64,000 nt of DNA from a bacterium (GTDB lineage: Bacteria > Patescibacteriota > Minisyncoccia > Phycocordibacterales > UBA5272), in the NCBI GenBank assembly GCA_023267535.1, contig JAHFNC010000003.1, positions 380 to 64,379 on the forward strand, read 5' to 3'. Position 1 is the first letter of the stretch; each line of letters begins with the position of its first letter. The translations under genes and the position numbers were made by a program. This document shows, in pieces, positions 39,245-61,022 of the stretch. The notes below the pieces were generated by a model. The model was not told the DNA's origin. It did not search any database and saw only the letters and a program-made list of their open reading frames with translations.

Positions 39245-39811
39245 TTATTTTTTTGCTTTTGGTTTTGCACCACCTTTAGCTGATTTTTTTCCAGCTCTAG
39301 CGGTCTTTTTATCAGATGACTCTTTCGCTTGCTTATCAGCGTGTATTTCTGTCACTGTTTTATCGGCAATTACAATATTTCCTCCTGCCTTTTCAATTTT
39401 TTCTTTGGCAATTGAGGAAACAATACATCCTTCAATTGTTACGTTGACTGTAATTTCTCCAGTTCCTAGTATTTTTATCTTTGGAGTCTTACCGGCAACC
39501 AATTGAACCAATCCTTTTTGTATAAGAGTTGTCTTATTTACTATCTCCCCTGCGGAAAAGATATTTAGAGAAGAAACATTTACCACAGCTTCTGGCCCTC
39601 TATCAAATGCTGACTTGGCACGATTCTTTCCGTGACCTCGCAACTTTGGAAGCTTCTTAATAATGTCACGCATTGCTGGGCGTCTCTTATTTCCAGCTCT
39701 AGCTGTTTGTCCCTTTCCTCCACGACCAGCTGTTTTACCTCGCTTTCCTCCACGAGCAACTAGTTTCTTTTTTCTTTGTGGGTGAGCACGTCTTATTTCA
39801 TGAACTTGCAT
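39245..39811 (-). CDS. rplO: 50S ribosomal protein L15 (with a C-terminal extension)
   Basis: L15 N-terminal Gly/Arg-rich region; 188 aa against a typical ~145. Confidence 0.85.
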   Translation of the reverse strand: MQVHEIRRAHPQRKKKLVARGGKRGKTAGRGGKGQTARAGNKRRPAMRDIIKKLPKLRGHGKNRAKSAFDRGPEAVVNVSSLNIFSAGEIVNKTTLIQKGLVQLVAGKTPKIKILGTGEITVNVTIEGCIVSSIAKEKIEKAGGNIVIADKTVTEIHADKQAKESSDKKTARAGKKSAKGGAKPKAKK

Positions 39812-39816
39812 AAATT

Positions 39817-40503
39817 TTATTTATCTTCTTTATTAATTTCATCTTTTCCGACCTTTGTGGCTTGAACTGGAGCCTCACCATGAGTGTAAGCAATTTGTTC
39901 TAGCGCTTTCATTGTGGCACGAGCATTGTTTAGTTTATTCTTTGTTCCAGAAAAAAACTTTGCAGTAACATCGTGTAATCCAGCCAAGTTAAGAATGATA
40001 CGAGCTGATGATCCAGCAATAAGTCCTCTACCCTTATTTGGCATAATAAACACCTTTGATGATTTGAATTTCGCTTCAATATCATGAGGTAGAGAATTAT
40101 TTTTTGCCAATCTAAGATGAATCATATTCTTCTTAGCGGCCTTCATTGCTTTTTCAATAGCCACTTGAGTATCAAGTGCCTTACCAGTTCCAAGTCCGAT
40201 GCGACCATTTCTATCTCCGGCAACCAAGGCTACAGAAAGAGAAAATCTTCTACCTCCTGAGACCACACGAGTCACACGACGAATAGAAATAGTTTTGCTA
40301 TCAAACTCTGGCTTCTCACGAGCGAACTTTTTAAATCCACCCTTGCGACCACCAGCTCCACCTTTCCCTCCTCTATTTCCTCCGCTACCACGACCGAATC
40401 TAGGAGCTTTTTGTGCTGCTTCTTCAGCTACAGCAACATTTCCTACTACGATTTTTTCTTCTTTTACTTCTGCTTCCGCAGGTATTATTGTTTCTTCTGT
40501 CAT
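39817..40503 (-). CDS. rpsE: 30S ribosomal protein S5 (with an N-terminal Gly/Arg-rich extension)
   Basis: S5 dsRBD plus C-terminal domain. No rpmD between it and rplO. Confidence 0.9.
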   Translation of the reverse strand: MTEETIIPAEAEVKEEKIVVGNVAVAEEAAQKAPRFGRGSGGNRGGKGGAGGRKGGFKKFAREKPEFDSKTISIRRVTRVVSGGRRFSLSVALVAGDRNGRIGLGTGKALDTQVAIEKAMKAAKKNMIHLRLAKNNSLPHDIEAKFKSSKVFIMPNKGRGLIAGSSARIILNLAGLHDVTAKFFSGTKNKLNNARATMKALEQIAYTHGEAPVQATKVGKDEINKEDK

Positions 40504-40512
40504 ATATTTATA

Positions 40513-40863
40513 TTAGAAGTTAAGACCAGCTACGCGTGCTGCGTCTGCTAGTGCTTGAACTCGACCACGGTACGAGAACCCGCCACGATCAAAGACAATC
40601 GTAGTAATATTTTTTGCTTTTGCTTCCTTAGCAACAGCTGTTCCGACAATTTTAGCTCTCTCAAGCTTTGAAACTTTATCAGCTAAACTGATGTCAGACG
40701 CTGACGCTAAAGTGATTCCTTTTACATCGTCAATTATTTGCGCGTAGATATATCTGTTTGATCGGAAGACTGCTAATCTAGGGCGAGCCTCGGAGCCAGA
40801 AATTCTAGCTCTGATTTTTCTGTGAAGTCTCGCGCGCTTTTGTGTTTTAATATCTGTTTTCAT
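40513..40863 (-). CDS. rplR: 50S ribosomal protein L18
   Basis: L18 family (116 aa) in the canonical position. Confidence 0.9.
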   Translation of the reverse strand: MKTDIKTQKRARLHRKIRARISGSEARPRLAVFRSNRYIYAQIIDDVKGITLASASDISLADKVSKLERAKIVGTAVAKEAKAKNITTIVFDRGGFSYRGRVQALADAARVAGLNF

Positions 40864-40886
40864 ATATTTTCAATTAATTTATAAAG

Positions 40887-41420
40887 CTATGCTGACTTCT
40901 TACCCTGCTTACGACGAATAACTTCATTGCTGTAACGAATACCTTTACCCTTATATGGTTCTGGCTTCTTCAAAGCACGAACTTTATTTGCAAATAATCC
41001 GACCATTTCTTTATCAATACCAGATATTGTTAGACTTCCTTTCTCAGCAGTAACTGTTAGTCCTTGTGGAATAGCAATTATTACTGGATGAGAAAATCCA
41101 AGCGCCAACTGAAGATCACTTCCCTTAACTTCCCACTTGAAACCAACTCCTTCAACGAGAAGTTTCTTTTCAAAAGGGGTTACGACACCACTAACCATGT
41201 TATTTATGTGAGACATATATGTCCCCCACAAAGAACGAGAGAACTTATCATTTCTTCTTGGTTCAGAAGTTATGACACCATCTTCTTGCTTAAATACGAT
41301 TTCTTCGCGAATAGGTCTTATCAATTCCCCTTTCGGTCCCTTTACGCGTATAGCATGGGCATCGAAGACTACTTCAACACCTGACGGAATATTTATTTGT
41401 TGTTTTCCAATTCTGCTCAT
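40887..41420 (-). CDS. rplF: 50S ribosomal protein L6
   Basis: L6 two-domain protein (177 aa). Confidence 0.9.
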   Translation of the reverse strand: MSRIGKQQINIPSGVEVVFDAHAIRVKGPKGELIRPIREEIVFKQEDGVITSEPRRNDKFSRSLWGTYMSHINNMVSGVVTPFEKKLLVEGVGFKWEVKGSDLQLALGFSHPVIIAIPQGLTVTAEKGSLTISGIDKEMVGLFANKVRALKKPEPYKGKGIRYSNEVIRRKQGKKSA

Positions 41421-41435
41421 ACGATTTTTTATTAA

Positions 41436-41822
41436 TTACCAAATTTCGAATAATACTTCACCTCCGACCATCTCCTTACGAGCTTGTTTTTCATTTAGAA
41501 TTCCTTTTGGTGTTGATAGAACACAAATACCATGACCATACTTAACAGGATAAATATCTTTTACTCCAAGATAAATTCTCTTTGATGGTTTAGAAACTCT
41601 CTTCACTCCAGAGATACGAGGTGTTGTTTTGTTTTTATAAAGAAGGATTGCTTCGGCTTTCGCTTTCACACCCTCGGTTACATTAAAAGTCTTAATGTAA
41701 CCCTCATTTTTTAATAGCTCAAGAATTGCTATCTTCATTTTTGATGAAGGAAAAGAAACGCTCTCTTTGTTTACAAAGTTAGCATTCTTAATAGCAATAA
41801 GCATATTTGCAATAGGATCCAT
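41436..41822 (-). CDS. rpsH: 30S ribosomal protein S8
   Basis: S8 family (128 aa). Confidence 0.9.
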   Translation of the reverse strand: MDPIANMLIAIKNANFVNKESVSFPSSKMKIAILELLKNEGYIKTFNVTEGVKAKAEAILLYKNKTTPRISGVKRVSKPSKRIYLGVKDIYPVKYGHGICVLSTPKGILNEKQARKEMVGGEVLFEIW

Positions 41823-41841
41823 AATTATTTAATGTTTATTA

Positions 41842-42027
41842 TTACCACGAAGCCTTTTTAATACCAGGAATCATACCTTCGTTAGCGAGCTCACGAAAGC
41901 ATGTTCTGCAAAGACCAAAATCGCGCATGAACCCGCGCTTTCGACCACATTTAAAGCAACGGTTAACTGTTCTTGTGCTAAACTTTGGCGTTTTTTTACT
42001 ACGGGCGATTACTGATGTTTTTGCCAT
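41842..42027 (-). CDS. rpsN: 30S ribosomal protein S14 type Z (zinc-binding, 61 aa)
   Basis: CxxC…CxxC zinc-ribbon S14 (CFKCGRK…CRTCFRE). Confidence 0.9.
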
Positions 42028-42227
42028 TGTCTAATTTATTTAATTGATAAATCTACCTTCAATATCTCGTTTATTTTCTTAAAAATGTTGAATTCTTAAG
42101 GAGACAAGCGGATTAAAAGATAGTTTTTAAATACTAACACGAAATGGAGATAGTTTCAAGTAAGAGCAAGTAAGTAAAAGGGCGGATAAGCTTCGCTTAT
42201 CCGCCCTTTCTATTTATATCCAACCCC

Positions 42228-45200
42228 CTACCCTTCAAACAAATTAGAAATATTTATCTTTATTGTCTTTGTTCTAAAGTCAGGGGCTCCCGTACAATAG
42301 AGTTTAAATATCGCTCCATGATTTAATATGAATGATTTTTTACCCAAAGCGTGAGTCTGACCATTTGGCGGAGTAACTAGTGCGGTTGTAATCTTTCTTG
42401 AACCGTATTGATCATTGGTGTCAGTGTTCATGTTAGCTATTCCAAAATTAATTGCATTTATTTCAGCAATTTGATCAGCGGTTGGAGATGAAGACGGAGA
42501 AGAGGCTATCATAGTACAACCAGCTATTGGATCTTGTATATCCCAAGAAACAGTTACGCTGTCTCCAGACTGAATACTTGTTGGTGAAGCAATTAAATTT
42601 ATGAGAGATGCACAATTATTTTCAACCCAAACTTGAGTGTTATCCCAACAAGTTTTTCTTGGATGAATATATGTTGCTTGACAACTGGTACTATTTCCAC
42701 CATTTAGTCCACCGCAAGACCATGTCCATCCATTTGATGCTCCATCTGTTGGATTGTTCAATGTTACATAGGACGGTGTGGTTCCTTTATCACACTGTGA
42801 GGTTATGTCGGTTGCGTACGTATAAGAACCTCCGGAGGAACTACCACAAGCCCCGTCTTGTTCTGAAATTACAGTTATAAGAGTGCTGTCTGTCCAACGA
42901 CAAGTACCGTTTTGATTGTGATCATTATCGCAAGCAGAGAATTTAACTCTATATGTTCCTAATTGTGTCGGAATAAAACTTGCGTTCATATTTTTATTTC
43001 CTGTAAAAGTAAAGTTTGCATTATTTGTATAATTATATGTCCACGAACCATCTGGATTTTGAACATCAAAATGAAGTTCAGTCATATCGGCGTTACTGTC
43101 TGATGCCGTAGATGAGAAGCTTATTGATTGACCGATTTGATGTGATACTTGGTTTGTATTTGGCACAATACTAACAGTTGGCACTAAATCAAAATATGTC
43201 GCCGAACAAGATACAGGCGCTCCTTGTCCAAGGCATTGCCATGACCATGGACCAAATGTTGGACCACCAGGTGGATTTGAACTTGGTGTCGTGTATTGAG
43301 AGCAGAGATTTACTTGAGGAGCAGATGGGAATGAACCTCCGCCAGATAATCCACAAGCAATATTTTGAGTAGCATTACACATACTTGAATTTACAGCTCC
43401 AATAGAACAATACCAACTCCACGCTCCAGTCGCAGATGGTGTTGAATATGCATTACAAAGATTTGTGGTTGGTGGTTGATCATAACTTGTTCCATTTGCT
43501 GACCCACAACCTGGAGCTCTACACGCTACCCCATCCCACACTGAGCCAGCTGTACACGACGCAGAAACAGATGTCGACATATGAACGAAAGATCCGTTTT
43601 TAATTGTGAAGGAATCCCCTCCGTACTTAACCGTGACGGGTTGGTTGGTTCCGTTGGCGGAAGTATAGAGACTAGCGCCTGCACCATTTACAATGTTTGG
43701 TGACGAGAAATGAACTGAAGACCAGTCAAGATAAACAGTACAAGAACTAGCATTAACAGATATCAAGCAAGAACCCTGTCTTGCAGAAATATTTCCTGAA
43801 GCCACGTAAACTGGCGTACTAGCAGATGTTCCTGAGCAAGTAATAGTGTATGTTGTATCTGATAACGGTGTCACGGATACTGAGCTAGCTATGTTTGCAG
43901 TGACAGCACCGACTCCGTTTATGCTACAAGATGAAGTTTGTGATGATGAATATGAAAGTAGAGATGATTGACTGTAGTTTATGGTAGAAGGATTGGCCGA
44001 TATTGAAGACGCAGAATTAGCTGCAAAAGATGCGGTGATTGTATGTCCCCACATTACGTTACCACTATCACTAAATGTTGGAAATGTGTAGTTTGATATA
44101 GCTCCTTGCTCTACATAATCAACCTGCACAGATGTAGTGTGGTATCCGCCACTTGGTGAAATACTAAATGCTTGAGTTGCCGAACTATCAACAAGTCTGT
44201 TTCCTAATGGAGAAATTGAACCACCTCCGCCTGCTGAAGAAGTTAAATGATAAGAACCATAAAACTTATTACCGTTCCATTTACAGAAAATCCAAGAATT
44301 CGGATTACTATTTTGATTAAGCGTACAACTCGCTGTTGCGTCAGCTAAAGATACGGTTGAAGTCATTGACCCCCCTCCTTCAATATACATAGTATATGTC
44401 CCAAGTGCTGGCGCTTGGAAAATAGTATTTCCGTTCCATGTACACATAATTGAATGGGTTGGATTATTGTTGTAATTTAATTGGCAGTTTGCTAATGCTT
44501 CTGGCAGAGTATAATGATTACCGGCAAGGTCAATATTAGAAGAAATAAAAGGTGATCCGCTTCCATCAAAATATCCTCTGTAATCTCCGAGCGCTGGAGC
44601 TGAATAAATCTGAGTTCCGTTCCATGTACACATAATAGCGTGAGTTGGATTATTGTTGCGGTTAAGTTGGCAGTTTGATAATGCGGCCGCTTGAGTAATA
44701 TTAGGTGTCTGTATAAACCATGAACCATCAAAATACCCTATATATGTCCCCAGTGGGTCAGAACAAACTCCACCACTCACTACTTGTCCAGAAGGACAGA
44801 CGGTTACTGTTACATATTGCCAACCACTACTAAGATTTGCTGTTGAATTACTACATCCGAAGGCATATTGTGTACTAGAGATTAGGCTTGGTGTAGTGTA
44901 AGTGAACGTAGTATTTATTGGTTCGTTTGCATTTATTCCAGACAAGTTACAGCTGGTGGCACCTGATGAGGTCATAGTGAGTACAGCTGTTGAATTATAT
45001 GTAATGGGGTTCGGCGAAGCAGATATGGTTGCTTTAATACAGGTTGGGAAATTCCCCGCCCCACTTGCCCCATTTGAACAAGTAGCATTAGTTGAGCAAC
45101 TAGCTGTTGACCCTCCATTTGTTCCAGGACAACTCCAAGTGTAACCATATGTTGGACCATTACCTGTGGGACCAGCAAGATTGGTGAAAGTAGACACACT

Positions 45201-47387
45201 CTGTGTGTCAGCCACACAGAGACCTTGAAGTTTTGGACTTGACCAACTTGCATAATTATTTTGATCTCTAGTGACATTGTCCCAAGTTGAATTGGCACAT
45301 AGTCCGTTCACGGGAGGACTGGTAACCGTAATAGTTTGTGTATTGGATTGAGTTCCAAACCATTTGACACCTTCTTGAACCATTTTCCAGTTAAATGAAT
45401 ATGTCCCAGGAGAATTAGGAGCCCTCATTTGTGTTTGTGCTCCTGAAAGAGTGAGAGATTGGCCTGGGCCGACACTACTTGGTAAATAAACTCTATTTAT
45501 TCCAAAATAAGTAAGATCATCTTGAGGAGTCCAGATACCGACTTTATATCCAGCCCCTGGGGACCAAGTTGTCACACCTGTATTATTTATGGTAATTGTC
45601 GGGGAAAATACCTGACCAACAGTAAGCGATGAAGGGAATGAAATAGTTACATTTCCATCGTCTGACACAACAGTATAAGGAATATAGAGCCATTGAGTAG
45701 CGACATTAGATCCAAGACCAATATGAGCTTGAAAAGCTATGGAATATGACCCAGGAGAATTTGGCGCTGTAAAATTAACGTTCGGTCCAGTCCACAATCG
45801 ACTTGGGTCTGGGTCGTAAAATCCACACGGAGTCCAACCGGCCCACTCTGGAGACAAAAGACAGGTATCTCCGCTACCATTAACATTACCTGTAACAACT
45901 AAGTTACCACCAGTACCAGTATAATTTTGAATATTGCCAGCTACTGTTACTGTCTCCCCTGGAGCATAAACAAATGGCGACGCTTTATTTACCACCCAAA
46001 CATTAGCATAAACGGGACCAGGTAAATAAAAGGTGTCGGCTTTAACTTTATTTGTACTTAAACTAAATAAAACAAAGAGAATAATTATTGATATAAAAGG
46101 AAATTTCTTTTTATATTTCAAATGAAGGAGGACTATTGATCCTACAAAAATAAAAGTGATGATGGCATACCAGTACCAAAAAATACCCGTAGTCTTTTTC
46201 GGGGAAAGATTAGAAGAGGATGTTATTGTAAAATCTCTAGAGTCCAAAACACCGTATTTAGAATCTAAAAATTTAACATTTATTTGCGGGTTAACACAAT
46301 CATTAGTGACAGTAAAAGGTATTTGTTCAAAATAGTTAACGGAGTCTAACGTTTTCGTAAATTGAGAAACACAACTATTTCCATTCTTATCCTTAATTGT
46401 TATTGAGACAGAAGCGTTGTTAAGTTTTGTTCCACTTGCCTTTCGTAGATTAGAAAATAAATCAATTGATGGTAGCCATAAAATAGAAAGTTTTGCTTTG
46501 TCTCCTGCACCATATACATCTTTATCTAAAGTAACATTCTGTATGGTTGCACTGGCCCCACGCAATACATAATTAAAATTAACAGTGTTCGTATTTTTCA
46601 AATCTCCAGTATTTTTAAAAATTAAAGACACCGTATAAGCTTGTGGGTTGGTTGCTTTTGGTAAATCTATATCTACTACCCTCTTTTCTTTGGAGGACAA
46701 AACTATTTGCGATTCACTGCTTTGATTTGTATTAATTGTATTACCGTAAACTCCATGCGCTTTTGTAATAAACTCTGGGATTAAAGTTATGTTATTTGAT
46801 GTTTTATTTTCAATCGTACAGTGAGCAACCAAACTTTCGGTGGACGCAATGTCTACACCTCGACTGGTGACATAGTGTGGTTGGTCTTTTTCATCTTTAA
46901 CAGTTAAATAACAACTAGTCGGATCAACATATGCAAAATATTCTACTTTTGATTTTAAATTTAATTTACCTATAACCCCTCTACCAAAAGAAAACCCATT
47001 ACTATTTCCAGCCGAAAGCCACAAGTTATATGTGCCAGATAATTCGGAAGGGGCTGTATAAGTTATTGTTTTATGAAGAGACGCATTTTCTCCTAAGTTT
47101 ATAGATTCTCCATAAACCTGTTCATCAACTATTGTGGATGTACCTTTTTTATCCTGAGTTAAGATCACTCCGTATTTTACATCTGGTTGAATACCGACTC
47201 GATTAGAAATATCAAAAGATATTTTTACAATGTTATCCTGCTGTGTAAAAGTGGCGTTGGCTACATTAACTGTAGCTACAACTATTGCATTACTAGCTGG
47301 AGTACTTGTTCCTTGAGCGAAAGCAAAAGAAGGGAAAAGTAAAAACCACACAGAAGAGATCAGAAGCCTTTTGAAAAATAAAAACAT
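42228..47387 (-). CDS. giant surface protein (1719 aa) with an internal membrane hairpin, tandem 55-aa repeats and a C-terminal module shared with the adjacent 948-aa protein
   Basis: Signal peptide and a ~390-aa domain, then …SPKKTTG-IFWYWYAIITFIFVGSIVLL-HLKYKKK-FPFISIIILFVLFSLS-TNKVKA…, followed by ~1270 aa with the W..PG.Y.F.W.M.QE.V.WFG domain, three GYFDGS…NCQLN.NNNPTH.IMCTWNG repeats, and C-terminal …KKSFILNHGAIFKLYC…IKINISNLFEG. Confidence 0.6.
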   Translation of the reverse strand: MFLFFKRLLISSVWFLLFPSFAFAQGTSTPASNAIVVATVNVANATFTQQDNIVKISFDISNRVGIQPDVKYGVILTQDKKGTSTIVDEQVYGESINLGENASLHKTITYTAPSELSGTYNLWLSAGNSNGFSFGRGVIGKLNLKSKVEYFAYVDPTSCYLTVKDEKDQPHYVTSRGVDIASTESLVAHCTIENKTSNNITLIPEFITKAHGVYGNTINTNQSSESQIVLSSKEKRVVDIDLPKATNPQAYTVSLIFKNTGDLKNTNTVNFNYVLRGASATIQNVTLDKDVYGAGDKAKLSILWLPSIDLFSNLRKASGTKLNNASVSITIKDKNGNSCVSQFTKTLDSVNYFEQIPFTVTNDCVNPQINVKFLDSKYGVLDSRDFTITSSSNLSPKKTTGIFWYWYAIITFIFVGSIVLLHLKYKKKFPFISIIILFVLFSLSTNKVKADTFYLPGPVYANVWVVNKASPFVYAPGETVTVAGNIQNYTGTGGNLVVTGNVNGSGDTCLLSPEWAGWTPCGFYDPDPSRLWTGPNVNFTAPNSPGSYSIAFQAHIGLGSNVATQWLYIPYTVVSDDGNVTISFPSSLTVGQVFSPTITINNTGVTTWSPGAGYKVGIWTPQDDLTYFGINRVYLPSSVGPGQSLTLSGAQTQMRAPNSPGTYSFNWKMVQEGVKWFGTQSNTQTITVTSPPVNGLCANSTWDNVTRDQNNYASWSSPKLQGLCVADTQSVSTFTNLAGPTGNGPTYGYTWSCPGTNGGSTASCSTNATCSNGASGAGNFPTCIKATISASPNPITYNSTAVLTMTSSGATSCNLSGINANEPINTTFTYTTPSLISSTQYAFGCSNSTANLSSGWQYVTVTVCPSGQVVSGGVCSDPLGTYIGYFDGSWFIQTPNITQAAALSNCQLNRNNNPTHAIMCTWNGTQIYSAPALGDYRGYFDGSGSPFISSNIDLAGNHYTLPEALANCQLNYNNNPTHSIMCTWNGNTIFQAPALGTYTMYIEGGGSMTSTVSLADATASCTLNQNSNPNSWIFCKWNGNKFYGSYHLTSSAGGGGSISPLGNRLVDSSATQAFSISPSGGYHTTSVQVDYVEQGAISNYTFPTFSDSGNVMWGHTITASFAANSASSISANPSTINYSQSSLLSYSSSQTSSCSINGVGAVTANIASSVSVTPLSDTTYTITCSGTSASTPVYVASGNISARQGSCLISVNASSCTVYLDWSSVHFSSPNIVNGAGASLYTSANGTNQPVTVKYGGDSFTIKNGSFVHMSTSVSASCTAGSVWDGVACRAPGCGSANGTSYDQPPTTNLCNAYSTPSATGAWSWYCSIGAVNSSMCNATQNIACGLSGGGSFPSAPQVNLCSQYTTPSSNPPGGPTFGPWSWQCLGQGAPVSCSATYFDLVPTVSIVPNTNQVSHQIGQSISFSSTASDSNADMTELHFDVQNPDGSWTYNYTNNANFTFTGNKNMNASFIPTQLGTYRVKFSACDNDHNQNGTCRWTDSTLITVISEQDGACGSSSGGSYTYATDITSQCDKGTTPSYVTLNNPTDGASNGWTWSCGGLNGGNSTSCQATYIHPRKTCWDNTQVWVENNCASLINLIASPTSIQSGDSVTVSWDIQDPIAGCTMIASSPSSSPTADQIAEINAINFGIANMNTDTNDQYGSRKITTALVTPPNGQTHALGKKSFILNHGAIFKLYCTGAPDFRTKTIKINISNLFEG

Positions 47388-47460
47388 ATTACTTAAGTAA
47401 CAGTATATCTTACAACACCACTATTGCGGAATATTTATACACAAAACTAAACCCCCGCAC

Positions 47461-50307: not shown

Positions 50308-50319
50308 AACAAATTAATA

Positions 50320-52587: not shown

Positions 52588-52618
52588 AAGAAAACTCGCC
52601 TTTTAGGCGAGTTTTCTT
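52588..52618. terminator. intrinsic terminator (gaaaactcgcc-tttta-ggcgagttttc)
   Basis: Perfect hairpin between element copy D and the 493-aa gene. Confidence 0.6.
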
Positions 52619-52627
52619 TCATTAAAA

Positions 52628-52736
52628 AGCTAGAATTTGCTTTAGATGCGAGGCACAGAAAATTTTTGCGACCAAGGCGTACATATAGTACGACGCGTGG
52701 AGGAAAAATTTTCTGTAACAAAGTAGATGAAGTAAA
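52628..52736 (-). ncRNA. dispersed 3'-UTR element, copy D (starts right after the rplE stop)
   Basis: RNA sense: UAA-UUUACUUCAUCUACUUUGUUA-CAGAAAAUUUUU-CCUCCACGCGUCGUAC-UAUAU-GUACGCC…AAAAAUUUUCUG-UGCCUCGCAUCUAA. The outer helix CAGAAAAUUUUU/AAAAAUUUUCUG is perfect. Confidence 0.6.
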
Positions 52737-53282: not shown

Positions 53283-53435
53283 ATTCTTTGATTAAGCACG
53301 ATTAGTTTTGTTACTAGAAACCCTCACAAAACGTATACGTCGCTTATGTTCTACTAATTGATAATTCATCTACTCTATCACAAAATGTGTAATCAGACAA
53401 ACAAAAGAAAACGGCACTCACGGTGCCGTTTTTAT

Positions 53436-54035
53436 TCAATTTTTTTCTAATTCCACTATTGTTTCCTGTAGAAAATATTTGAAAAAGATTATTGCTAGTC
53501 TCCCAGTTTTTTTTGGTTTGAAATCAACATCTACATCAGCTGGGGTTCTGATTTTGTGGTCTAGACCAGAGAAAGAGATTGTCAGACCAAGTTTCTCAAT
53601 TTCTTCTTTTGCTTTCTCTGACCAAGCCTGAAGTTTTGTATGTTTATCGTAAAGCCTTATTTGTTCCTTCAAAAAGGCGGCACAGGTTTTACTATCTACG
53701 AAAGAAGGATTTTCTTGAAAATCATTGAAACCATTTATGCGATTGGTCACTTCAAGAAAAATCTTCCAAACAGGGGCACGATAACGAAACTCTTCCCCTT
53801 TTCTAAGAAATTGCCTAGGCTCTCTTGAGTCCCACGCCGGAGTAAACGGGAAATTATTTTCCATTTCATCAAATACTCGCCAAAGATAATTAGCGCTATT
53901 TATTCCAACTGAATCTTCGATGCCGTTTAAGATGTCCAGTAAACACTTACAAGAAAACAAAACGTCTACCTTGTAACCAAGGTCTGTCTGTATATGTCTA
54001 GGGAAAATACTCATAACCTTCTCCTCAAAAAACAA
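53436..54035 (-). CDS. hypothetical cytoplasmic protein (199 aa) inserted between rplX and rplE
   Basis: Intact ORF without TM segments or recognisable motifs. It has its own upstream terminator and 3'-element. Confidence 0.4.
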   Translation of the reverse strand: MFFEEKVMSIFPRHIQTDLGYKVDVLFSCKCLLDILNGIEDSVGINSANYLWRVFDEMENNFPFTPAWDSREPRQFLRKGEEFRYRAPVWKIFLEVTNRINGFNDFQENPSFVDSKTCAAFLKEQIRLYDKHTKLQAWSEKAKEEIEKLGLTISFSGLDHKIRTPADVDVDFKPKKTGRLAIIFFKYFLQETIVELEKN

Positions 54036-54063
54036 CTAAACAAAATCTAGCACAAAACAAATT

Positions 54064-54098
54064 AAAAAGCGACGACCGGAGGTCGTCGCTTTTTAATT
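54064..54098. terminator. terminator hairpin (aaaaagcgacgacc-ggag-gtcgtcgcttttt)
   Basis: A variant of the GCGAC…GTCGC family, lying between element copy E and the 199-aa gene. Confidence 0.65.
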
Positions 54099-54119
54099 AT
54101 TACTTTTCCTAATTTTCAA

Positions 54120-54229
54120 AAAGTCAGAAAAGGTTTTAGATGCGCGAAGCATAAAAATTTTATGAGAGAGATGTAGTAGACCTACATTGACCGAATAAAA
54201 TTTTGTAGCGACAAAGCAGATGAAACTTT
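54120..54229 (-). ncRNA. dispersed 3'-UTR element, copy E (starts right after the rplX stop)
   Basis: RNA sense: …UUCAUCUGCUUUGUCGCUA-CAAAAUUUUAU-UCGGUCAAUGUAG-GUCU-ACUACAU…AUAAAAUUUUUAUG-CUUCGCGCAUCUAA. Confidence 0.6.
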
Positions 54230-54457
54230 TTATGACTTTTTGTCGGCAAGCTTTACGTTAGAAACATCAATAGGCATAGCCTTATCAATAATTCCACCCT
54301 TATCTCCCTGCTTCTTTGGTTTGATGTGGCGCTTCATTGTATTTAATCCTTCCAAAATAACTTTGTTTCTTGTTGGAATAGCGCGCGCAACAACAGAAGT
54401 CTTTCCCTTCTCCTTTCCAGCAATCACTATTACTTTGTCTCCTTTTTTTATTTTCAT
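54230..54457 (-). CDS. rplX: 50S ribosomal protein L24
   Basis: KOW-motif protein (75 aa) in the canonical position. Confidence 0.85.
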   Translation of the reverse strand: MKIKKGDKVIVIAGKEKGKTSVVARAIPTRNKVILEGLNTMKRHIKPKKQGDKGGIIDKAMPIDVSNVKLADKKS

Positions 54458-54475
54458 AATTTTTTATCTAAATAT

Positions 54476-54856
54476 TTATATTACTTCCGGTGCAAGTGAT
54501 GCGATTTTCTTGAAACCATCAATACCCTTTTCAGTAAGCTCACGAGGAATAGGACCAAAGACGCGTCCAGCTTTCGGTTCCTTTTTTACTTTATCAACCA
54601 AAACCACAGCATTATCATCAAAAGAAATATATGATCCATCTTTACGACGAACTTGCTTTGTAGTTCTAACAACTACACCATAAACAATATCCTTCTTCTT
54701 TGTTGTCTTTCTTGGCTCTGCAATTTTAACTGACAAAACAACCAAATCTCCAAGTGAAGCATAACGACGTTTTGATCCGCCTAACACCTTGAAAACTCTT
54801 CCGAATTTTCCTCCAGAGTTATCTGTTATTTTTACATTTGTTCCTGCTTGTATCAT
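54476..54856 (-). CDS. rplN: 50S ribosomal protein L14
   Basis: L14 family (126 aa). Confidence 0.9.
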   Translation of the reverse strand: MIQAGTNVKITDNSGGKFGRVFKVLGGSKRRYASLGDLVVLSVKIAEPRKTTKKKDIVYGVVVRTTKQVRRKDGSYISFDDNAVVLVDKVKKEPKAGRVFGPIPRELTEKGIDGFKKIASLAPEVI

Positions 54857-54878
54857 GGTTGTATGTTTAGGTTAATAA

Positions 54879-55127
54879 TTATTTGTGACCAATTACGATA
54901 AAGTTCTTATCCTTTGAAATTGGACGAGACTCTTCGATGATTACTGTCTCTCCTACTTTATATTCATTGTTTTCGTCGTGGGCCTTGTATCTCTTGTCTA
55001 TCTTATAGTACTTTCCATACTTCTTGTGCGCGACATATCTAGAAACATTAACAACAACAGTCTTATCTGATTTATCAGATACTACTTTTCCTGTTAATTT
55101 TCTTTTGTTTACTTTTTGTTCTTTCAT
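54879..55127 (-). CDS. rpsQ: 30S ribosomal protein S17
   Basis: S17 OB-fold (82 aa). Only 14 nt separate it from rplP, so rpmC is absent. Confidence 0.9.
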
Positions 55128-55141
55128 ATTTTTTATTTAAA

Positions 55142-55561
55142 TTAACGCGCTACTACACGAGTCTTAACCGGAAGCTTTGTCCCTGCTTTGCGAAGAGCTT
55201 CACGTGCCACCTCTTCTGTTACTCCGTCAATCTCAAAGAGGACTCTTCCTGGACGAACTTCAAAACAATATCCCTTCGGATCTCCCTTTCCTTTTCCCAT
55301 CGGAACTTCTGCAGCCTTTTGAGTAACTGGTCTGTCTGGGAAAATACGAATCCAAATTTTAGCAGTCTTTCCAGCGTAACGAGTCATAGCACGACGAGCA
55401 GATTCAATTTGATTAGACATCACACGTGCTGGAGTCTCGGCTTTCAATCCAAAAGCACCGAAAGAAACTTTTATTCCTCTTGTCTCTGGACGATTAAGCT
55501 TTGCAACTGATAGTCTCGCCGATTGCCATTTTCTGTGTTTTACTTTTTTTGGAAATAACAT
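55142..55561 (-). CDS. rplP: 50S ribosomal protein L16
   Basis: L16 family (139 aa). Confidence 0.9.
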   Translation of the reverse strand: MLFPKKVKHRKWQSARLSVAKLNRPETRGIKVSFGAFGLKAETPARVMSNQIESARRAMTRYAGKTAKIWIRIFPDRPVTQKAAEVPMGKGKGDPKGYCFEVRPGRVLFEIDGVTEEVAREALRKAGTKLPVKTRVVAR

Positions 55562-55571
55562 ACTCGTTTAA

Positions 55572-56246
55572 TTATTTATTCTTGTTGTCCTTATCGTTAA
55601 ACTTCATTCCACGATAAATCCAAACCTTTATACCAATCACTCCGTAAGTCATATAAGCTTTCTCACGAGCAAAATCAATGTCGGCACGAAGTGTTTGAAG
55701 TGGAATTCCACCTCTTTTAATTTGTTCACGACGAGCCATTTCAGCACCTCCTAGTCTTCCTGATACAGCGATACGAGCACCTTTAACATCACGGTTTGCC
55801 ATAACTTTTTCCATAGTCATTTTAAGAACTCTACGGAAAGGAAGACGCTTTTCAATTCCCTCTGCTACCATTGAAGCCACAATTGCTGCATTGGCTTCTG
55901 GATTTGCGACTTCAACAATATCAAGCTTTACATCTTGAGTGATGACAATCTTTGAGCGACGCATTTCTTTCTTTAGCGCCTCCTTCAATTTTTCAATACC
56001 GTCTCCACCACGACCAATAATCATTCCCGGACGAGATGTGTGAATAGAAATACAATACTCTTTCGCACTTCTCTCAATTTCAATTAAAGAAACATACATT
56101 CCACGAAGTTTCTTAGTTAACCATGCACGAAGTAGAACATCTGAACGAAGATGGTCAACATAATTTTCTTTCTTGCCGAACCAGCGTGACTTCCAGTCGC
56201 GTATGATTCCTAGTCTATGTGCATATGGGTGAACTACGTGTGTCAT
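55572..56246 (-). CDS. rpsC: 30S ribosomal protein S3
   Basis: KH domain plus S3 C-terminal domain (224 aa). Confidence 0.9.
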   Translation of the reverse strand: MTHVVHPYAHRLGIIRDWKSRWFGKKENYVDHLRSDVLLRAWLTKKLRGMYVSLIEIERSAKEYCISIHTSRPGMIIGRGGDGIEKLKEALKKEMRRSKIVITQDVKLDIVEVANPEANAAIVASMVAEGIEKRLPFRRVLKMTMEKVMANRDVKGARIAVSGRLGGAEMARREQIKRGGIPLQTLRADIDFAREKAYMTYGVIGIKVWIYRGMKFNDKDNKNK

Positions 56247-56254
56247 ATATTTTA

Positions 56255-56581
56255 TTAATCTTTTTTAACTTTATGAGCAAGCTCTATTTTAACTTGGCTT
56301 GTATGCTTATGAATTGGAAACGCACGGCCCATGGCGCGGGGCATCCATCTCTTAAGAACAACTCCCTTGTCTACTGTTGCATTTTTTACAATTAAATCTT
56401 TTACATCCCCTTGGGCATTAGCTACAGCTGAATTAAGAAGCTTCTTGATTGGAAGCGCTCCTCTCTTTATAAGGTGAGTTAAAATAGCTTGTGCCTCAAC
56501 CACATTCTTACCCTTAATAAGCTCCGTTATCAAACGAACTTTTCTTGGTGACTGTCTGTAATTTTTTAGGGAAGCTTTCAT
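56255..56581 (-). CDS. rplV: 50S ribosomal protein L22
   Basis: L22 family (108 aa). Confidence 0.9.
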   Translation of the reverse strand: MKASLKNYRQSPRKVRLITELIKGKNVVEAQAILTHLIKRGALPIKKLLNSAVANAQGDVKDLIVKNATVDKGVVLKRWMPRAMGRAFPIHKHTSQVKIELAHKVKKD

Positions 56582-56590
56582 ATATTAAAA

Positions 56591-56935
56591 TTATTTCTTC
56601 TTAGTATCAGCGGTAGCCTTAACAACCTTAGCAGCATCAATTTCAGATTGCTTTTTCTTCTGGTCAATTTCCTTTTGCATTTTTCCTCCGTGGCGAACGA
56701 ACTTACGAGTTGGAGAAAATTCACCAAGCTTGTGACCAACCATATCTTCAGTTAAAAGAACTTCGATATGAGTCTTACCGTTGTAAACTCCAAAAGTGAA
56801 ACCAACCATCTCAGGTGCGATATCACATCTACGAATCCATGTCTTAATTACCCCTGTTTCCTCAGGTTTCTTTCCGAGCACTTTTTTGAGTACTCTCTCG
56901 TCTACGAATGGTCCTTTGCTTAGTGATCTTGTCAT
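56591..56935 (-). CDS. rpsS: 30S ribosomal protein S19
   Basis: [11 protein letters not shown] motif. 114 aa, with a Lys-rich C-terminal tail. Confidence 0.9.
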
Positions 56936-56990
56936 AAAATTGTGGTCAATAGGGCTTAATTATATCAGAATTTCCTTTAAAGTAAAGCTT

Positions 56991-57830
56991 TTATTTCTTC
57001 TTCTTATTTACTCTTCTGGAAACAATGTGAACGTTTGAGTACTTGTTTGGCTTTCTGGTCTTTCTGCCTCCAGTAACACGACCTTGCTTGGTCTTTGGAC
57101 GCTTGGTTCCACGTGGCGCCTTTCCTTCACCTCCTCCGTATGGGTGGTCTACTGGGTTTCTAGCGGTAGCTCTAGTCTTTGGACGCCATCCTAAATGTCT
57201 TGCGCGTCCAGCCTTTCCTAAATTACGAAGTCTGTATTCTTCGTTTGAAACTTCACCAATACAAGCGAATGATTCATCTTTTATTTTTCTAATTTCTGAT
57301 GAAGGAAGCTTAATTGATGTAAATCCAGCGTCGTGAGCAACAACTTGAGCATATACTCCAGCTGAACGAACGAGCTTTGATCCCCCTCTTGGTTGTAGCT
57401 CGATATTATAAACAAAAGTTCCAACTGGAATATTTTTTAATACTGTTCTGTTTCCAACTTCAAGTGGAGCAGTAGCGGAGACAATAAATGAATCACCCAC
57501 CTTCATTTTACCTGGAAGAAGAATGTATCTCTTAGCTCCGTCATTGTAAGCAACAAGCCCGATGAAGCCTGATCTGTTTGGATCGTACTCCACACTTTGA
57601 ATCTTGGCAGGAATATCTAATTTGTCATATCTAAAATCAATATCACGGAAAGATCTTTTATTTCCTCCTCCACGAGCTTGAGATGTTATACGACCATAAG
57701 CGTTTCTTCCGGATCCTCTGCGGAACCCTTTGGTTAATGGCTTGTGAGGCTTACTCTCTGTTAAAACACCGCTGTAAGTAACAGTGGACATTTTTCTTCT
57801 TGATGGGGTTGTCGGTTTGTATGTCTTCAT
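56991..57830 (-). CDS. rplB: 50S ribosomal protein L2
   Basis: L2 family (279 aa), including …GGGEGKAPRGT…. Confidence 0.95.
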   Translation of the reverse strand: MKTYKPTTPSRRKMSTVTYSGVLTESKPHKPLTKGFRRGSGRNAYGRITSQARGGGNKRSFRDIDFRYDKLDIPAKIQSVEYDPNRSGFIGLVAYNDGAKRYILLPGKMKVGDSFIVSATAPLEVGNRTVLKNIPVGTFVYNIELQPRGGSKLVRSAGVYAQVVAHDAGFTSIKLPSSEIRKIKDESFACIGEVSNEEYRLRNLGKAGRARHLGWRPKTRATARNPVDHPYGGGEGKAPRGTKRPKTKQGRVTGGRKTRKPNKYSNVHIVSRRVNKKKK

Positions 57831-57841
57831 ATCTTTATAAA

Positions 57842-58153
57842 TTAATTAGCAAGATTAATGGTGTCCCCTTTCTTTAAGAAAACAATTGCCTTCTTAATAG
57901 CATTTGTTCTTCCGTGCTTTCCACGAACAAACACTGCTGTTCCTTTTAGGTTTATGATATTTATGGAAAGTGGCTTCACTTTATATGTCTTTTCAATTTC
58001 TTTAGCAAGTGAAAGTTTAGTTGCTTCTTTCTTCACAACGAAAGTATAAGCATTAGCATTTGATTGCAATGAGGCCTTTTCAGTAATGCGAGGAGAAATA
58101 ATTAAATTATCATTCTCTACTTCAGTATTCTTTTGTTTTATTTCTTTACTCAT
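57842..58153 (-). CDS. rplW: 50S ribosomal protein L23
   Basis: L23 family (103 aa). Confidence 0.85.
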   Translation of the reverse strand: MSKEIKQKNTEVENDNLIISPRITEKASLQSNANAYTFVVKKEATKLSLAKEIEKTYKVKPLSINIINLKGTAVFVRGKHGRTNAIKKAIVFLKKGDTINLAN

Positions 58154-58158
58154 ATTTT

Positions 58159-58821
58159 TTACTTTATCTTTGATGACAAATACTCAAAGGTAGTCTCTGG
58201 ATCAGAGATAATTAAGTATCTAGTGTTAGCAATATCAAGAGGATTTAAATCATCCGCATTATGAAATGTCATAAATGGAAGATTTCTAAATGATCTCTTC
58301 ATCATAGCGTCCGCCTTTCCTACAGAAAGATAAACATTGTTTGGCTTCTTGTAAGTAAGAGTCTTGAATCCTTCAACTTGTGATAGGTTCTTCATTATCA
58401 TTTCCGCATTCTTAGTTTTTCCAGTTGTTTCTTTTAGAGAATCAACAAAAAGAATTTTTCCTGATTTAAATTTTGCAGACAGAAGTGCAAACAAAGCTTT
58501 ATTCTTCATTCCACGAGGAATGTCTTTCTTGAAATTGGTATCATTTCTTGGACCGTGAGTAACTCCACCGTGTCTCCAGATTGGTGAACGAGATGATCCG
58601 TGACGAGCACGACCTGTTCCCTTTTGTTGCCATGGCTTCTTACCTCCACCACGCACTTCACTTCTATCTTTAGTGTGAGCAGTTCCGGCACGACGATTAG
58701 ACATTTGTGATTGAATAACTTGTGATACCAAGTCAGCATTCCACTTCACATCAAAAATACTCTCAGGTAATGTGATTTCTCTTGTGCTCTTTCCTTCGGT
58801 TGTATAAACTTTTACTTCCAT
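58159..58821 (-). CDS. rplD: 50S ribosomal protein L4
   Basis: L4 family (220 aa). Confidence 0.9.
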   Translation of the reverse strand: MEVKVYTTEGKSTREITLPESIFDVKWNADLVSQVIQSQMSNRRAGTAHTKDRSEVRGGGKKPWQQKGTGRARHGSSRSPIWRHGGVTHGPRNDTNFKKDIPRGMKNKALFALLSAKFKSGKILFVDSLKETTGKTKNAEMIMKNLSQVEGFKTLTYKKPNNVYLSVGKADAMMKRSFRNLPFMTFHNADDLNPLDIANTRYLIISDPETTFEYLSSKIK

Positions 58822-58823
58822 AA

Positions 58824-59426
58824 TTATCCTTTTATTTCTACAAGCGTTCCTCTTTTACCAGGAACTGCTCCTTTGACTAAAATTAATCCACTTGCCAAAT
58901 CAACATCAAGAATTTTTACACTCTTTTGTGTGACACGATCACTTCCCATACGACCCGCCATTCTCTTTCCTTTGAAAACTCTCTGTGGACCAGTGGCTCC
59001 GATAGATCCAATCTCACGAGCAGAGTGTTTCTGTCCGTGTTGTCCCCATCCACCACTCATTCCGTGACGCTTCATTGGACCTTGGAATCCTTTTCCTTTT
59101 GAAATACTAGAAATGGTTACAATGTCTCCTTTAGAAAAAATATCACAAGCGATTCTAGCACCAAGTGCTAAGTCTCCGCCTGGAGTTCTAAATTCTTTTA
59201 CTTCTTTGAAACTTCCACCTTTTAAGTGACCAAGTAATGCTTTAGACAGTCTCTCTTTCTTTTGCTCAAAAGCACCAACTTGAATAGCTTCGTAACCATC
59301 TCTTTCTTTTGTCTTGATTGCAGTAACAGTAAGAGTAGACGCAGCCAAAACAGTAGCCGGATGTACTGTTCCGTCTTCTGCGAAGAACTGTGTCATATGT
59401 TGTTTTTTAGCTAGAGTGAATTTCAT
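58824..59426 (-). CDS. rplC: 50S ribosomal protein L3
   Basis: L3 family (200 aa). Confidence 0.9.
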   Translation of the reverse strand: MKFTLAKKQHMTQFFAEDGTVHPATVLAASTLTVTAIKTKERDGYEAIQVGAFEQKKERLSKALLGHLKGGSFKEVKEFRTPGGDLALGARIACDIFSKGDIVTISSISKGKGFQGPMKRHGMSGGWGQHGQKHSAREIGSIGATGPQRVFKGKRMAGRMGSDRVTQKSVKILDVDLASGLILVKGAVPGKRGTLVEIKG

Positions 59427-59438
59427 ACATTTACGATA

Positions 59439-59798
59439 CTATGCCATCTTTACATCAATGTCGACTCCCGATGGAAGTGATAGGTTAGTTAGCGCTTCGA
59501 TTAGCTTGGCATTTGGATTAACTATATCAATCAATCTTTTATGCACACGCATCTCAAACTGCTCACGAGCATCTTTATAAATAAATGATGCACGGTTTAC
59601 AGTGTAACGCTTAATCTCTGTCGGCAATGGAATTGGACCTAATATTACAGCTTCAAATCTGCGAGCTGTATCAATAATCTGCTTCACAGAATTATCTAAC
59701 ACCTTGCTCTCGTAAGCACGAACACGAATACGAAGTTTTTGGACTTCTGCAGTCTTGCTTTGAGTTGCTTTTTTAGCTGTAGCTTTAGTTGCTGTCAT
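59439..59798 (-). CDS. rpsJ: 30S ribosomal protein S10
   Basis: S10/NusE family; the C-terminal 100 aa are canonical. Confidence 0.9.
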   Translation of the reverse strand: MTATKATAKKATQSKTAEVQKLRIRVRAYESKVLDNSVKQIIDTARRFEAVILGPIPLPTEIKRYTVNRASFIYKDAREQFEMRVHKRLIDIVNPNAKLIEALTNLSLPSGVDIDVKMA

Positions 59799-59828
59799 GA
59801 GCTTTTAGTTATTTTTAATTTAATAGAA

Positions 59829-61022
59829 CTAGGCGTTAATTTTTGTAACAACACCAGCACCTACAGTCTTACCTCCTTCACGGATAGCGAAACGGCCTTG
59901 CTCTTCAAGAGCGATAGGTGCGAGTAATTTAACAGTAAGCTTTACTGTATCTCCTGGCATAACCATTTCTGTTCCTGCTGGAAGTGTACATTCACCTGTT
60001 ACGTCAGTTGTTCTTACGTAAAATTGTGGCTTGTATCCATTGAAGAATGGTGTGTGACGACCTCCTTCTTCCTTCTTTAGAATGTAAACTTCACATTCAA
60101 AGTCAGTATGTGGCTTAACAGATCCAGCCTTAGCTAGAACTTGTCCACGAAGAATATCTTCCTTCTTGATACCACGAACTAGAAGTCCAGCGTTATCTCC
60201 AGCTTGTCCCTCTGGAAGAGATTTATTAAACATTTCAATTCCAGTAACAACTGTCTTAACAGTATCCTTTAGACCAACGATTTCAATTTCCTCGTTTAGT
60301 TTTACAACACCTCTTTCGATACGTCCTGTAACCACAGTTCCTCTTCCTTCAATTGAGAAAATATCTTCAACTGGCATAAGGAAAGGCTTTGTAACATCAC
60401 GCTCTGGCAATGGAATCCAAGTATCAAGAGCGTTTAGAAGCTCAACAATCTTTTGTGCCCATGGATCATCAAGTGACTTAGCTTCTGAAGCCTTAAGACC
60501 AGAACCTCTGATGATTGGAGTATTAACACCGTCGAATCCATACTTTGTAAGGATTTCGCGGATTTCTTCCTCAACCAACATAATCATTTCTTCATCTTCA
60601 ACCATATCGCACTTATTTAGAAATACCACCATTCTTGGAACACCAACTTGCTTTGCAAGTAGAACGTGCTCACGAGTTTGAGGCATTGGACCGTCAGTTG
60701 CAGCAACCACCAAGATTGCACCGTCCATTTGAGCGGCACCAGTAATCATGTTCTTGATATAGTCAGCGTGACCTGGAGCATCAATGTGTGCGTAGTGACG
60801 AGTATCTGTCCAGTACTCTGAGTGAGATAGAGAAATAGTAATACCACGAGCTTTTTCCTCAGGTGCCTTATCGATATCATCTACCCCTTTTGTTTTGATA
60901 GTTGCATCTTTTAAGTGAAGCACGTTAAGAATACCGGATGTAAGAGTAGTCTTTCCGTGGTCTACGTGACCGATTGTTCCCACATTTACGTGTGGCTTGT
61001 CGCGATTAAATGTTTCTGCCAT
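59829..61022 (-). CDS. tuf: elongation factor Tu
   Basis: [18 protein letters not shown] and NKCD GTPase motifs (397 aa). Confidence 0.97.

Follow-up and report, generated by a model that had tools for sequence, protein, structure and literature searches.

A ribosomal protein gene supercluster with large inserted genes

We examined a 64-kb stretch of contig JAHFNC010000003.1 (the whole of which is referred to below as the window), in which the S10-spc-alpha supercluster of ribosomal protein (r-protein) genes of a candidate phyla radiation (CPR) bacterium is interrupted by inserted genes, several of which encode giant proteins. The r-protein genes and the inserted genes all lie on the minus strand. 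As judged by Pfam matches, the genes follow one another as the C-terminus of fusA, tuf, S10, L3, L4, L23, L2, S19, L22, S3, L16, S17, L14, L24, L5, S14, S8, L6, L18, S5, L15, SecY, Adk, and Map, which is the canonical sequence, and by relative gene order the locus is a member of the supercluster. It is not a member by contiguity, since spacers of 0.9, 10.7, 5.3, and 8.2 kb occur at L24|L5, L5|S14, L15|SecY, and SecY|adk, nor is it one by gene set, from which L29, L30, and the alpha-operon genes past map are missing. An initial annotation of this DNA had called the gene order canonical; the order itself stands, with the qualification that there is no rpmC (L29) in the 14-nt spacer between L16 and S17 (55128-55141) and no rpmD (L30) in the 5-nt spacer between S5 and L15 (39812-39816). 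Loss of uL29 and uL30 is already known for the CPR (PMC9297842). We note that the L16-S17 spacer is tight in close relatives too and measures ~200 nt in more distant ones.

Between tuf and map, a distance of 37.9 kb, ~25.1 kb falls to the four inner spacers that hold inserted genes, and two further genes lie at fusA|tuf. The genes named in the initial annotation exist with the sizes it gave and on the minus strand, and Pfam matches and open reading frame (ORF) coordinates put the insertions where it had placed them, including the fusA|tuf pair and a gene for a 1040-amino acid (aa) protein upstream of rplJ. The limits that it had set for the feature, 39245-61022, take in tuf to L15, but the feature runs on to ~23157, with the SecY-side insertions at 24618-39119. 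The gene order is identical in two independent assemblies (ENA ERZ27279977 and Logan SRR14366796), and we therefore conclude that the locus is not a chimera.

Putative terminators and promoters at the slot borders

Read from fusA toward map, tuf (59829-61022) and the genes S10 to L24 (54230-59798, without L29) form an unbroken block (54230-61022); within S10 to L24, as within S14 to L15, the spacers are 2-55 nt long and contain no strong hairpins. At each slot border there is a G+C-rich hairpin of 12-23 bp that has a T-run. Such terminator hairpins follow L24, the 199-aa ORF, L5, the 493- and 1719-aa genes, L15, and the 1511-, 1495-, and 1073-aa genes, and the SecY spacer also has one, 3′ of a copy of a repeated motif that we call R1 (see below). 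Past L24, an R1 copy (54132-54225) and an 18-bp hairpin (54060-54098) make up the segment 54060-54225. The L24|L5 slot (53408-54035) then holds a 199-aa orphan ORF (53436-54035), which starts with TTG, is called at 192 aa in public annotations, and is followed by a terminator of its own (53408-53432); no Pfam or PHROGs match was found for this ORF. The stand-alone rplE unit (52588-53400) consists of a leader (~53283-53400), L5 (52737-53282), an R1 copy (52638-52732), and a terminator (52588-52618). In the L5|S14 slot, a gene for a 493-aa PG_binding_1 protein with two Ig-like domains (51034-52515) and its terminator (50981-51017) occupy 50981-52515 and are followed by a probable operon (42177-50901) encoding a 193-aa membrane protein (50320-50901) and proteins of 948 aa (47461-50307) and 1719 aa (42228-47387), with spacers of 12 and 73 nt and a terminator at 42177-42209. 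The unit S14-S8-L6-L18-S5-L15 (39190-42159; genes at 39245-42027, without L30) shows a promoter-like sequence at 42131-42159 and, past L15, a terminator of 23 bp. The gene for a 1511-aa secreted protein (34584-39119; terminator 34538-34568) fills 34538-39119 of the L15|SecY slot, ahead of a segment (32610-34513) that comprises the gene for a 158-aa small secreted or membrane protein (34037-34513), SecY (32717-33979, identified by Pfam), and an R1 copy (32610-32705). Finally, the SecY|adk slot (24572-32438) holds the tandem 1495-aa (27951-32438) and 1073-aa (24618-27839) genes.

A −10-like box, often TGn-extended, lies 10-35 nt upstream of the first start codon of each unit. The L24|L5, L15|SecY, and SecY|adk spacers of relatives in which these slots are empty (~120-190 nt) hold the same type of terminator, which argues that the cluster was cut into units before, or independently of, the arrival of its cargo. 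From these sequence signals we conclude that the inserted genes sit between predicted transcription units and not within operons, contrary to the initial annotation, which had them embedded in the operons themselves. Its further claim that each insertion has its own terminator and 3′-element holds for the terminators, a strong hairpin being present past every inserted unit, but not for the ~94-nt R1, which follows housekeeping genes.

We also observed that one terminator stem, GCGACGCC-NNN-GGCGTCGC, occurs five times in the window compared with 0 expected (5813-5831, 34544-34562, 39206-39224, 50990-51008, and 63283-63301). Two of these copies bracket the 1511-aa gene, with their loops oppositely oriented.

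Domains and predicted export of the large inserted proteins

In the initial annotation, nearly all giant proteins were credited with a Cys-bounded PG_binding_1-like domain, and hidden Markov model searches were proposed as the check. PG_binding_1 (PF01471) is matched in Pfam at 58.3 bits by the 493-aa protein, 63.4 bits by the 1073-aa protein, 55.4 bits by the 1495-aa protein, and 41.5 bits by the 1511-aa protein; the 1040-aa protein encoded upstream of rplJ barely passes (23.4 bits versus a cut-off of 23). The Pfam search did not find PG_binding_1 in the 1719- and 948-aa proteins, in which only Nbr1_FW (N_BRCA1_IG) scores above threshold, and these two proteins contain no LPxTG motif. The check therefore bears out the domain in five of the seven large proteins and fails in the other two. 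Where present, the domain is Cys-bounded as described, with one Cys on each side. All seven large proteins have a predicted N-terminal signal peptide and are rich in Thr, Ser, Gly, and Asn; most contain 24-46 Cys residues, but there are only 6 in the 493-aa and 2 in the 1040-aa protein. A PHROGs search with the orphans and the giants gave no match.

The 948- and 1719-aa proteins are secreted paralogues that share several modules. The 1495- and 1073-aa genes are tandem paralogues with 5′ ends, 3′ ends, upstream regions, and terminators in common; each has its own duplicated upstream region and terminator and encodes a signal peptide, repeats, and a C-terminal PG_binding_1 domain. Internal direct repeats are abundant in the giant genes. 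Those of the 1073-aa gene extend to 300 nt with 98% identity, and internal repeats of ~1131 nt occur in the 1511-aa gene, the product of which has a C-terminal Cys-bracketed PG_binding_1 anchor. This indicates that the giant genes are growing in place via module duplication. G+C content at 4-fold-degenerate sites is 0.07-0.23 in the giant genes, 0.06-0.28 in the r-protein genes, and 0.26-0.28 in adk, map, and the ATPase gene that follows them, relative to which the giant genes are if anything the more biased; the likeness between the giant and r-protein genes indicates that the former are native, and their codon usage suggests that they are possibly well expressed.

An AlphaFold2 model of the 493-aa protein, built with 37 homologues (mean pLDDT 70.7), comprises a helical PG-binding domain, a disordered linker of ~115 residues, and two β-sandwich (Ig/FN3-like) domains, for which the Foldseek matches are FN3/Ig tandems from adhesins, from S-layer proteins, and from proteins of the biofilm matrix. 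The predicted fold fits a wall-bound surface protein without pointing to a specific ligand. With signal peptides on all of the large inserted proteins, Cys-bracketed PG_binding_1 in five of them, and this model, a cell wall–bound surface or adhesin-like role is a reasonable prediction, and the proposal in the initial annotation that they are cell-envelope or surface candidates is supported.

Two side observations concern the protein sequences. Common to the 1719- and 948-aa proteins are repeated Cys modules of the GxWxWxC type and a C-terminal domain with NxFEG at its end. Around residues 400-440, the 1719-aa protein also has two internal hydrophobic segments, of which the first looks like a membrane anchor and the next like a second signal segment. 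The 158-aa protein (34037-34513, minus strand) contains a tandem repeat of ~55 residues with …GWYYGDKDQKKQGTP…, and a module 58% identical to this repeat lies within a 1730-aa PG_binding_1 protein of a relative (L166, 21095-21214).

Occupancy of the same junctions in relatives

To compare junction lengths, loci were anchored on L5 with ±10 kb of flanking sequence, taking one genome per species plus metagenomes, and measured by tblastn; loci with an L5 at least 52% identical were taken as relatives, and a gap of >400 nt was scored as occupied. The metagenome scan, anchored on L5, contributed just ~5 extra relatives. The L24|L5 junction is occupied in 9/15 relatives compared with 0/55 other bacteria, L5|S14 in 9/12 compared with 0/130, SecY|adk in 4/6 compared with 0/34, and L15|SecY in 1/8 compared with 0/9. 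The remaining junctions are short in relatives and other bacteria alike. At L24|L5, L5|S14, and SecY|adk, this occupancy is far from chance.

The conserved occupant of the L5|S14 slot is the gene encoding the 493-aa protein. A full-length orthologue (35-53% identity) is found at L5|S14 in L004, L005, L006, L008, and L009, that is, in every close relative whose contig reaches this slot; at least 56 full-length homologues exist in the protein collection, and all three for which the context was fetched adjoin S14-S8, directly upstream. Among the further slot genes of relatives are those for additional PG_binding_1 proteins, 463-850 aa long (L004, L008, and L012), for a DUF2177 protein, and for a protein of the amino acid kinase family. 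An exhaustive HMMER scan with the 1073-aa protein, blind to genomic context, found mosaic relatives, and four of the five that we looked up lie at L15|SecY or L24|L5: proteins of 1153 and 1100 aa are encoded directly upstream of secY (L167 and L168), one of 1340 aa at L15|secY (JGI 3300050046, on a contig where a 493-like gene and a gene for 987 aa precede S14 and a gene for 225 aa lies at secY|adk), and one of 1694 aa between L24 and L5 (L169). The fifth is located in an mraY-ftsW-murG cluster. In addition, L166 has its 1730-aa PG_binding_1 gene past L15. Giant PG_binding_1 genes are found beside secY in the window, L004, L166, L167, L168, and JGI 3300050046.

Full-length homologues of the 948- and 1511-aa proteins were not found among the best 8000 candidates scored in a word-indexed search, which returned self or single-domain matches only. 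By sequence identity, the PG_binding_1 anchor of the 1511-aa protein is closer to its L15|SecY counterparts (59-65%) than to other anchors of the same genome (~35%); for the rest of the protein (95%), no homologue was found among the same number of candidates. We therefore conclude that slot and anchor were inherited and that the exposed part was replaced.

The interleaving is typical of the lineage and not a singular event. The initial annotation had described the arrangement as unusual, which is correct relative to other bacteria at L24|L5, L5|S14, and SecY|adk and incorrect within the lineage; it had itself allowed that orthologous interleaved genes in related genomes would make the feature lineage-typical, and this is largely what we see, with the same junctions occupied, an orthologous 493-aa gene, and giant PG_binding_1 genes at L15|SecY. 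This genome is the most heavily loaded example, extreme only in the size and number of its giants (five, 948-1719 aa).

Some loci of relatives show further changes at these junctions. The cluster is rearranged or disconnected in L006, in which L5 has been relocated after L15; in L010, in which fusA follows L5; in L164, in which the 493-S14 block is apart from L5; and in L166, in which L31, prfA, S2, and tsf lie between L5 and the 493-like gene. In L008 (1629-2831, minus strand) and L009 (2921-4303, minus strand), the L24|L5 slot holds a gene on the opposite strand for a pilus-type T2SSE ATPase; in L008, it has as neighbors the genes for a PG_binding_1 protein and for a protein whose match to T4SS pilin is weak and falls below the threshold.

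The R1 motif and the rplE leader

R1 is an imperfect hairpin motif of ~94 nt present in eight copies in the 64 kb. The genes fusA, rplX, rplE, secY, rplJ, and efp and the VirD4-like gene each have a copy 4-12 nt past the stop codon, and the copy invariably points the same way as the gene. Seven copies are on the minus strand (63376-63469, 54132-54225, 52638-52732, 32610-32705, 20289-20380, 8944-9036, and 3057-3150) and one is on the plus strand (20136-20229); the copy directly past the fusA stop codon matches the covariance model with 91.6 bits. In relatives, R1 was located in L165 (16238-16331), L007 (10552-10646), L009 (14280-14372), and L089 (15498-15590 and 15753-15845). Over 13 copies, the proposed pairing is satisfied in 87% of cells, compared with 62% in shuffles and 33-51% in slid controls, and 15 of 19 pairs show compensatory changes in an alignment that was itself fitted to the model. 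R1 stands directly 3′ of secY in the window, L165, L009, and L089, of which L089 has an L5 just 53% identical and L165 has no insert past secY. It was not found in nine non-CPR loci. The eighth copy in the window lies in rRNA: the 23S gene (1418-5431) measures 4014 nt, compared with 2925 nt for the model, and close to model position 1765 the loop of a terminal helix carries a 283-nt insertion (2890-3172, minus strand) that contains R1.

REP/BIME, ERIC, Correia/NEMIS, and RUP are hairpin elements repeated in extragenic DNA and transcribed together with genes. R1 resembles them in being an imperfect hairpin of ~94 nt with many intergenic copies and one in an rRNA insertion. It differs in its fixed post-stop position and orientation, the covariation of its stem, and its place after secY across species, and it comes with neither a transposase nor clear terminal repeats nor target duplications. 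An identity as attC, the recombination site of an integron, was rejected because R1 follows housekeeping genes, stays after secY where there is no insert (L165), and is accompanied by no integrase that we could find. For its fixed orientation, post-stop position, and covariation, we also do not favor a miniature inverted-repeat transposable element (MITE), although the copy in the 23S insertion leaves some mobility possible. We take R1 to be a candidate 3′-untranslated region (UTR) RNA signal, for stability, processing, or termination, of translation-related genes and not an insertion scar.

Throughout the close clade, rplE stands alone as a unit, and a conserved leader lies ahead of it (window ~53283-53400, minus strand). 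The leader has a TGTGnTAGAGT box and, after it, AAGCGACGTATAACG, a hairpin of variable sequence, and AATCGTGCTT; the stem around this hairpin reads AAGCGACG(UAUAACG)…(AAU)CGUGCUU, and the leader contains a AAGCGACGUAUAACG…AAUCGUGCUU stem. It is present in 12 species, including L004-L010, L012, L085, L165, and L166, at the same position upstream of rplE, and was not found in more distant relatives, where L24 abuts L5. Neither R1 nor the leader has a gathering-level match in Rfam (Rfam 15), the matches at 52500-54300 being no better than chance level, and it is possible that the leader is an autoregulatory r-protein leader outside Rfam.

Interpretation and alternative explanations

We consider it probable, with some reserve, that the locus represents old, clade-wide slots between separately terminated units, filled with Sec-exported, wall-anchored proteins whose ectodomains evolve fast. 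The supercluster of this Paceibacteria-type lineage would have been split into the units [tuf/S10…L24], [L5], [S14…L15], [SecY], and [adk-map…], leaving slots at L24|L5, L5|S14, L15|SecY, and SecY|adk, and also at fusA|tuf. The slot genes would encode Sec-exported proteins bound non-covalently to the cell wall, each with a signal peptide, with modules that are either Ig/FN3-like β-sandwiches or Cys-rich repeats, and with a PG_binding_1 anchor bracketed by Cys; slot and anchor would be inherited, and the exposed part would be remade fast by tandem gene duplication, internal module expansion, and module replacement. Transcription of the inserted genes probably starts at −10-type promoters of their own, with hairpin terminators providing insulation.

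Several points weigh against this interpretation. A generic promoter scan returned no more sites than in shuffled sequence, and the −10 boxes therefore count as sequence readings and not as functional evidence; transcript boundaries are read from consensus-type hairpins and −10 boxes only, and read-through from r-protein promoters is possible. The 1719- and 948-aa proteins lack a PG_binding_1 domain, and the mode of attachment proposed for the others does not extend to these two. The sample comprises ~25 relatives, mostly fragmentary contigs of metagenome-assembled genomes (MAGs), and enrichment of PG_binding_1 genes in the cluster relative to the genome as a whole is presumptive. Finally, the finding that four of five relatives of the 1073-aa protein occupy the slots may reflect positional orthology and not independent recruitment.

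The same observations can be arranged differently. If terminator read-through from the strong, growth-rate-coupled r-protein promoters supplied envelope proteins alongside ribosome synthesis, the association would have been selected for co-expression, and the inserted genes are indeed all co-directional with the r-protein genes, their synonymous-site usage is like that of highly expressed genes, and the pairing of surface genes with r-protein genes recurs across species. We regard this as unlikely because 12-23-bp T-run hairpins part each r-protein unit from the next insert, the inserts have −10-like boxes of their own, and the same terminators are found where the slot is empty. Rather less likely still, the genes for very large Sec substrates could be kept at L15|SecY and SecY|adk for local co-translational export. 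The giant PG_binding_1 genes beside secY in six loci agree with such a linkage, but equally large genes lie at L24|L5 and L5|S14, 10-20 kb away from secY, and one relative of the family resides in the mraY-ftsW-murG cluster. Moreover, we know of no established mechanism that couples the secY neighborhood to local export in bacteria.

Recent mobile or genomic-island DNA, or an assembly chimera, would account for the giants without full-length homologues found and for the GCGACGCC…GGCGTCGC hairpin on both sides of the 1511-aa gene and five times in the window. We hold this to be very improbable, given the native codon usage, the slots and anchors kept across species, and the same gene order in independent assemblies. 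Using Pfam and PHROGs, we found no integrase, recombinase, transposase, or phage family in the window or in the inserts of relatives, and the window has no tRNA gene. The locus shows neither a mobility gene, nor deviant codon usage, nor a tRNA-adjacent insertion with flanking direct repeats, by which a genomic island is recognized; the repeats found at the borders are limited to terminator hairpins and to the duplicated region upstream of the 1495/1073 pair. An integron cassette array was likewise rejected, as the structured R1 follows housekeeping genes and not the inserts and no integrase was found. A reading broader than that of old slots would make the supercluster an organized diversification locus, in which fixed slots among essential, highly expressed, leading-strand genes each carry a conserved wall anchor and a hypervariable ectodomain that sets host or partner specificity, the essential neighbors shield the cargo from the deletion bias of a reduced genome, and R1 is a new RNA processing or stability signal, common to the mRNA 3′ ends of translation genes and the 23S insertion, that helps to partition the cluster. 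This joint reading is speculative, and we rate it as improbable.

The preferred interpretation, that of old slots between separately terminated units, joins two known phenomena. In Gammaproteobacteria and Bacilli, Brandis described for the same cluster the insertion of genes between operons followed by full disconnection (PMC8046335), and the alteration rate of translation clusters is raised in particular lineages (2019, PMC6735719). Both stages are seen here, with insertion in the window and splitting or rearrangement at the same points in L164, L010, and L006. The locus departs from the Brandis pattern in that its breaks fall within what is the spc operon of Escherichia coli instead of at the classical borders between operons, that four or five slots hold genes simultaneously, and that the cargo repeatedly belongs to one functional class, that of secreted PG_binding_1 proteins; also, remnants of transposons were not found. 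The second phenomenon is the large, Cys-rich, strain-variable extracellular proteins of CPR (Peregrinibacteria) that are described by Anantharaman et al. (2016; PMC4736985). The giants of the window resemble these as far as they are described there, in signal peptides, large size, high Cys content, fast variation, and a proposed attachment role; the likeness is one of description, and the passages of that account that were searched mention neither a PG_binding_1 anchor nor a location in the r-protein cluster. By this likeness, a role in host attachment is plausible (PMC4736985). A literature search found no paper on interruption of the r-protein cluster in CPR, and the combination of insertions in a conserved translation cluster with variable giant CPR surface proteins is new.

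The giants also resemble monoderm proteins anchored by LysM, SH3b, CWB, or PG_binding_1, which have a signal peptide, a repetitive β-sandwich ectodomain, and a small terminal wall-binding module. Unlike these non-covalently wall-bound proteins, they have the anchor set in a conserved Cys pair, and their binding to peptidoglycan is a prediction from sequence. PG_binding_1 often accompanies hydrolases or transpeptidases; the PG_binding_1 proteins of the window have no catalytic domain.

The 16 syntenic r-proteins of this cluster are a standard marker set for CPR genome binning and phylogeny. A cluster split by repetitive giant genes of 1-10 kb tends to break in assembly, which scatters the markers over contigs. 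Conversely, the slots between L24, L5, S14, L15, SecY, and adk offer a handle for finding the fastest-evolving surface proteins of an uncultured episymbiont clade, and the proteins encoded there are obvious candidates for cell-cell contact. On this interpretation, the Brandis model of insertion first and disconnection second would hold within the spc operon of a reduced genome. R1 and the rplE leader are candidate new structured RNAs linked to translation genes.

Other features of the window

At the upstream end, the 3′ end of fusA (63476-63919, minus strand; EF-G domains IV and C, Pfam EFG_IV and EFG_C) is followed, past its R1 copy, by the two genes of the fusA|tuf slot, both on the minus strand. 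The first (62024-63226) encodes a 400-aa membrane protein with hydrophobic segments at 266-336 and a C-terminal double zinc ribbon (Pfam DZR). The second (61296-61883) is a 195-aa GC-rich orphan ORF with a GC content of 0.54 and a 4-fold-site GC of 0.71 in a genome of ~38% GC, and it is the only inserted gene that departs from native composition. A TTGACA-16-TATAAT promoter-like site lies upstream and a terminator lies downstream of it; it has no Pfam, PHROGs, or Rfam match, and relatives yielded no homologue. The sense strand has a fold z-score of −3.6, which is suggestive but, given −2.1 for the antisense strand, not decisive. Its composition and predicted folding would suit either a foreign gene or a structured RNA.

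At the downstream end (20289-24531, minus strand), adk (23935-24531) and map (23157-23930) are followed by the gene for a 904-aa VirD4/TraG-like ATPase (20411-23125, minus strand; Pfam DUF8128 and TrwB_AAD_bind), in the position usually taken by the alpha operon, and by an R1 copy (20289-20380). The position of the ATPase gene is kept in the Patescibacteria relatives L005, L165, L045, and JGI 3300050046; in L045, it comes after secY. Farther along, the gene for the 1040-aa secreted protein (9827-12949), whose weak PG_binding_1 match is N-terminal, precedes L10, an R1 copy (8944-9036), and L7/L12 (together 8530-12949, minus strand). The nearest public genomes carry the labels Candidatus Nomurabacteria or Paceibacterota. 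In addition to the 23S rRNA gene, the window contains one 5S rRNA gene, and a group I intron–like segment at 1753-1944 in the 23S gene scores 48.8 bits compared with a gathering score of 50.

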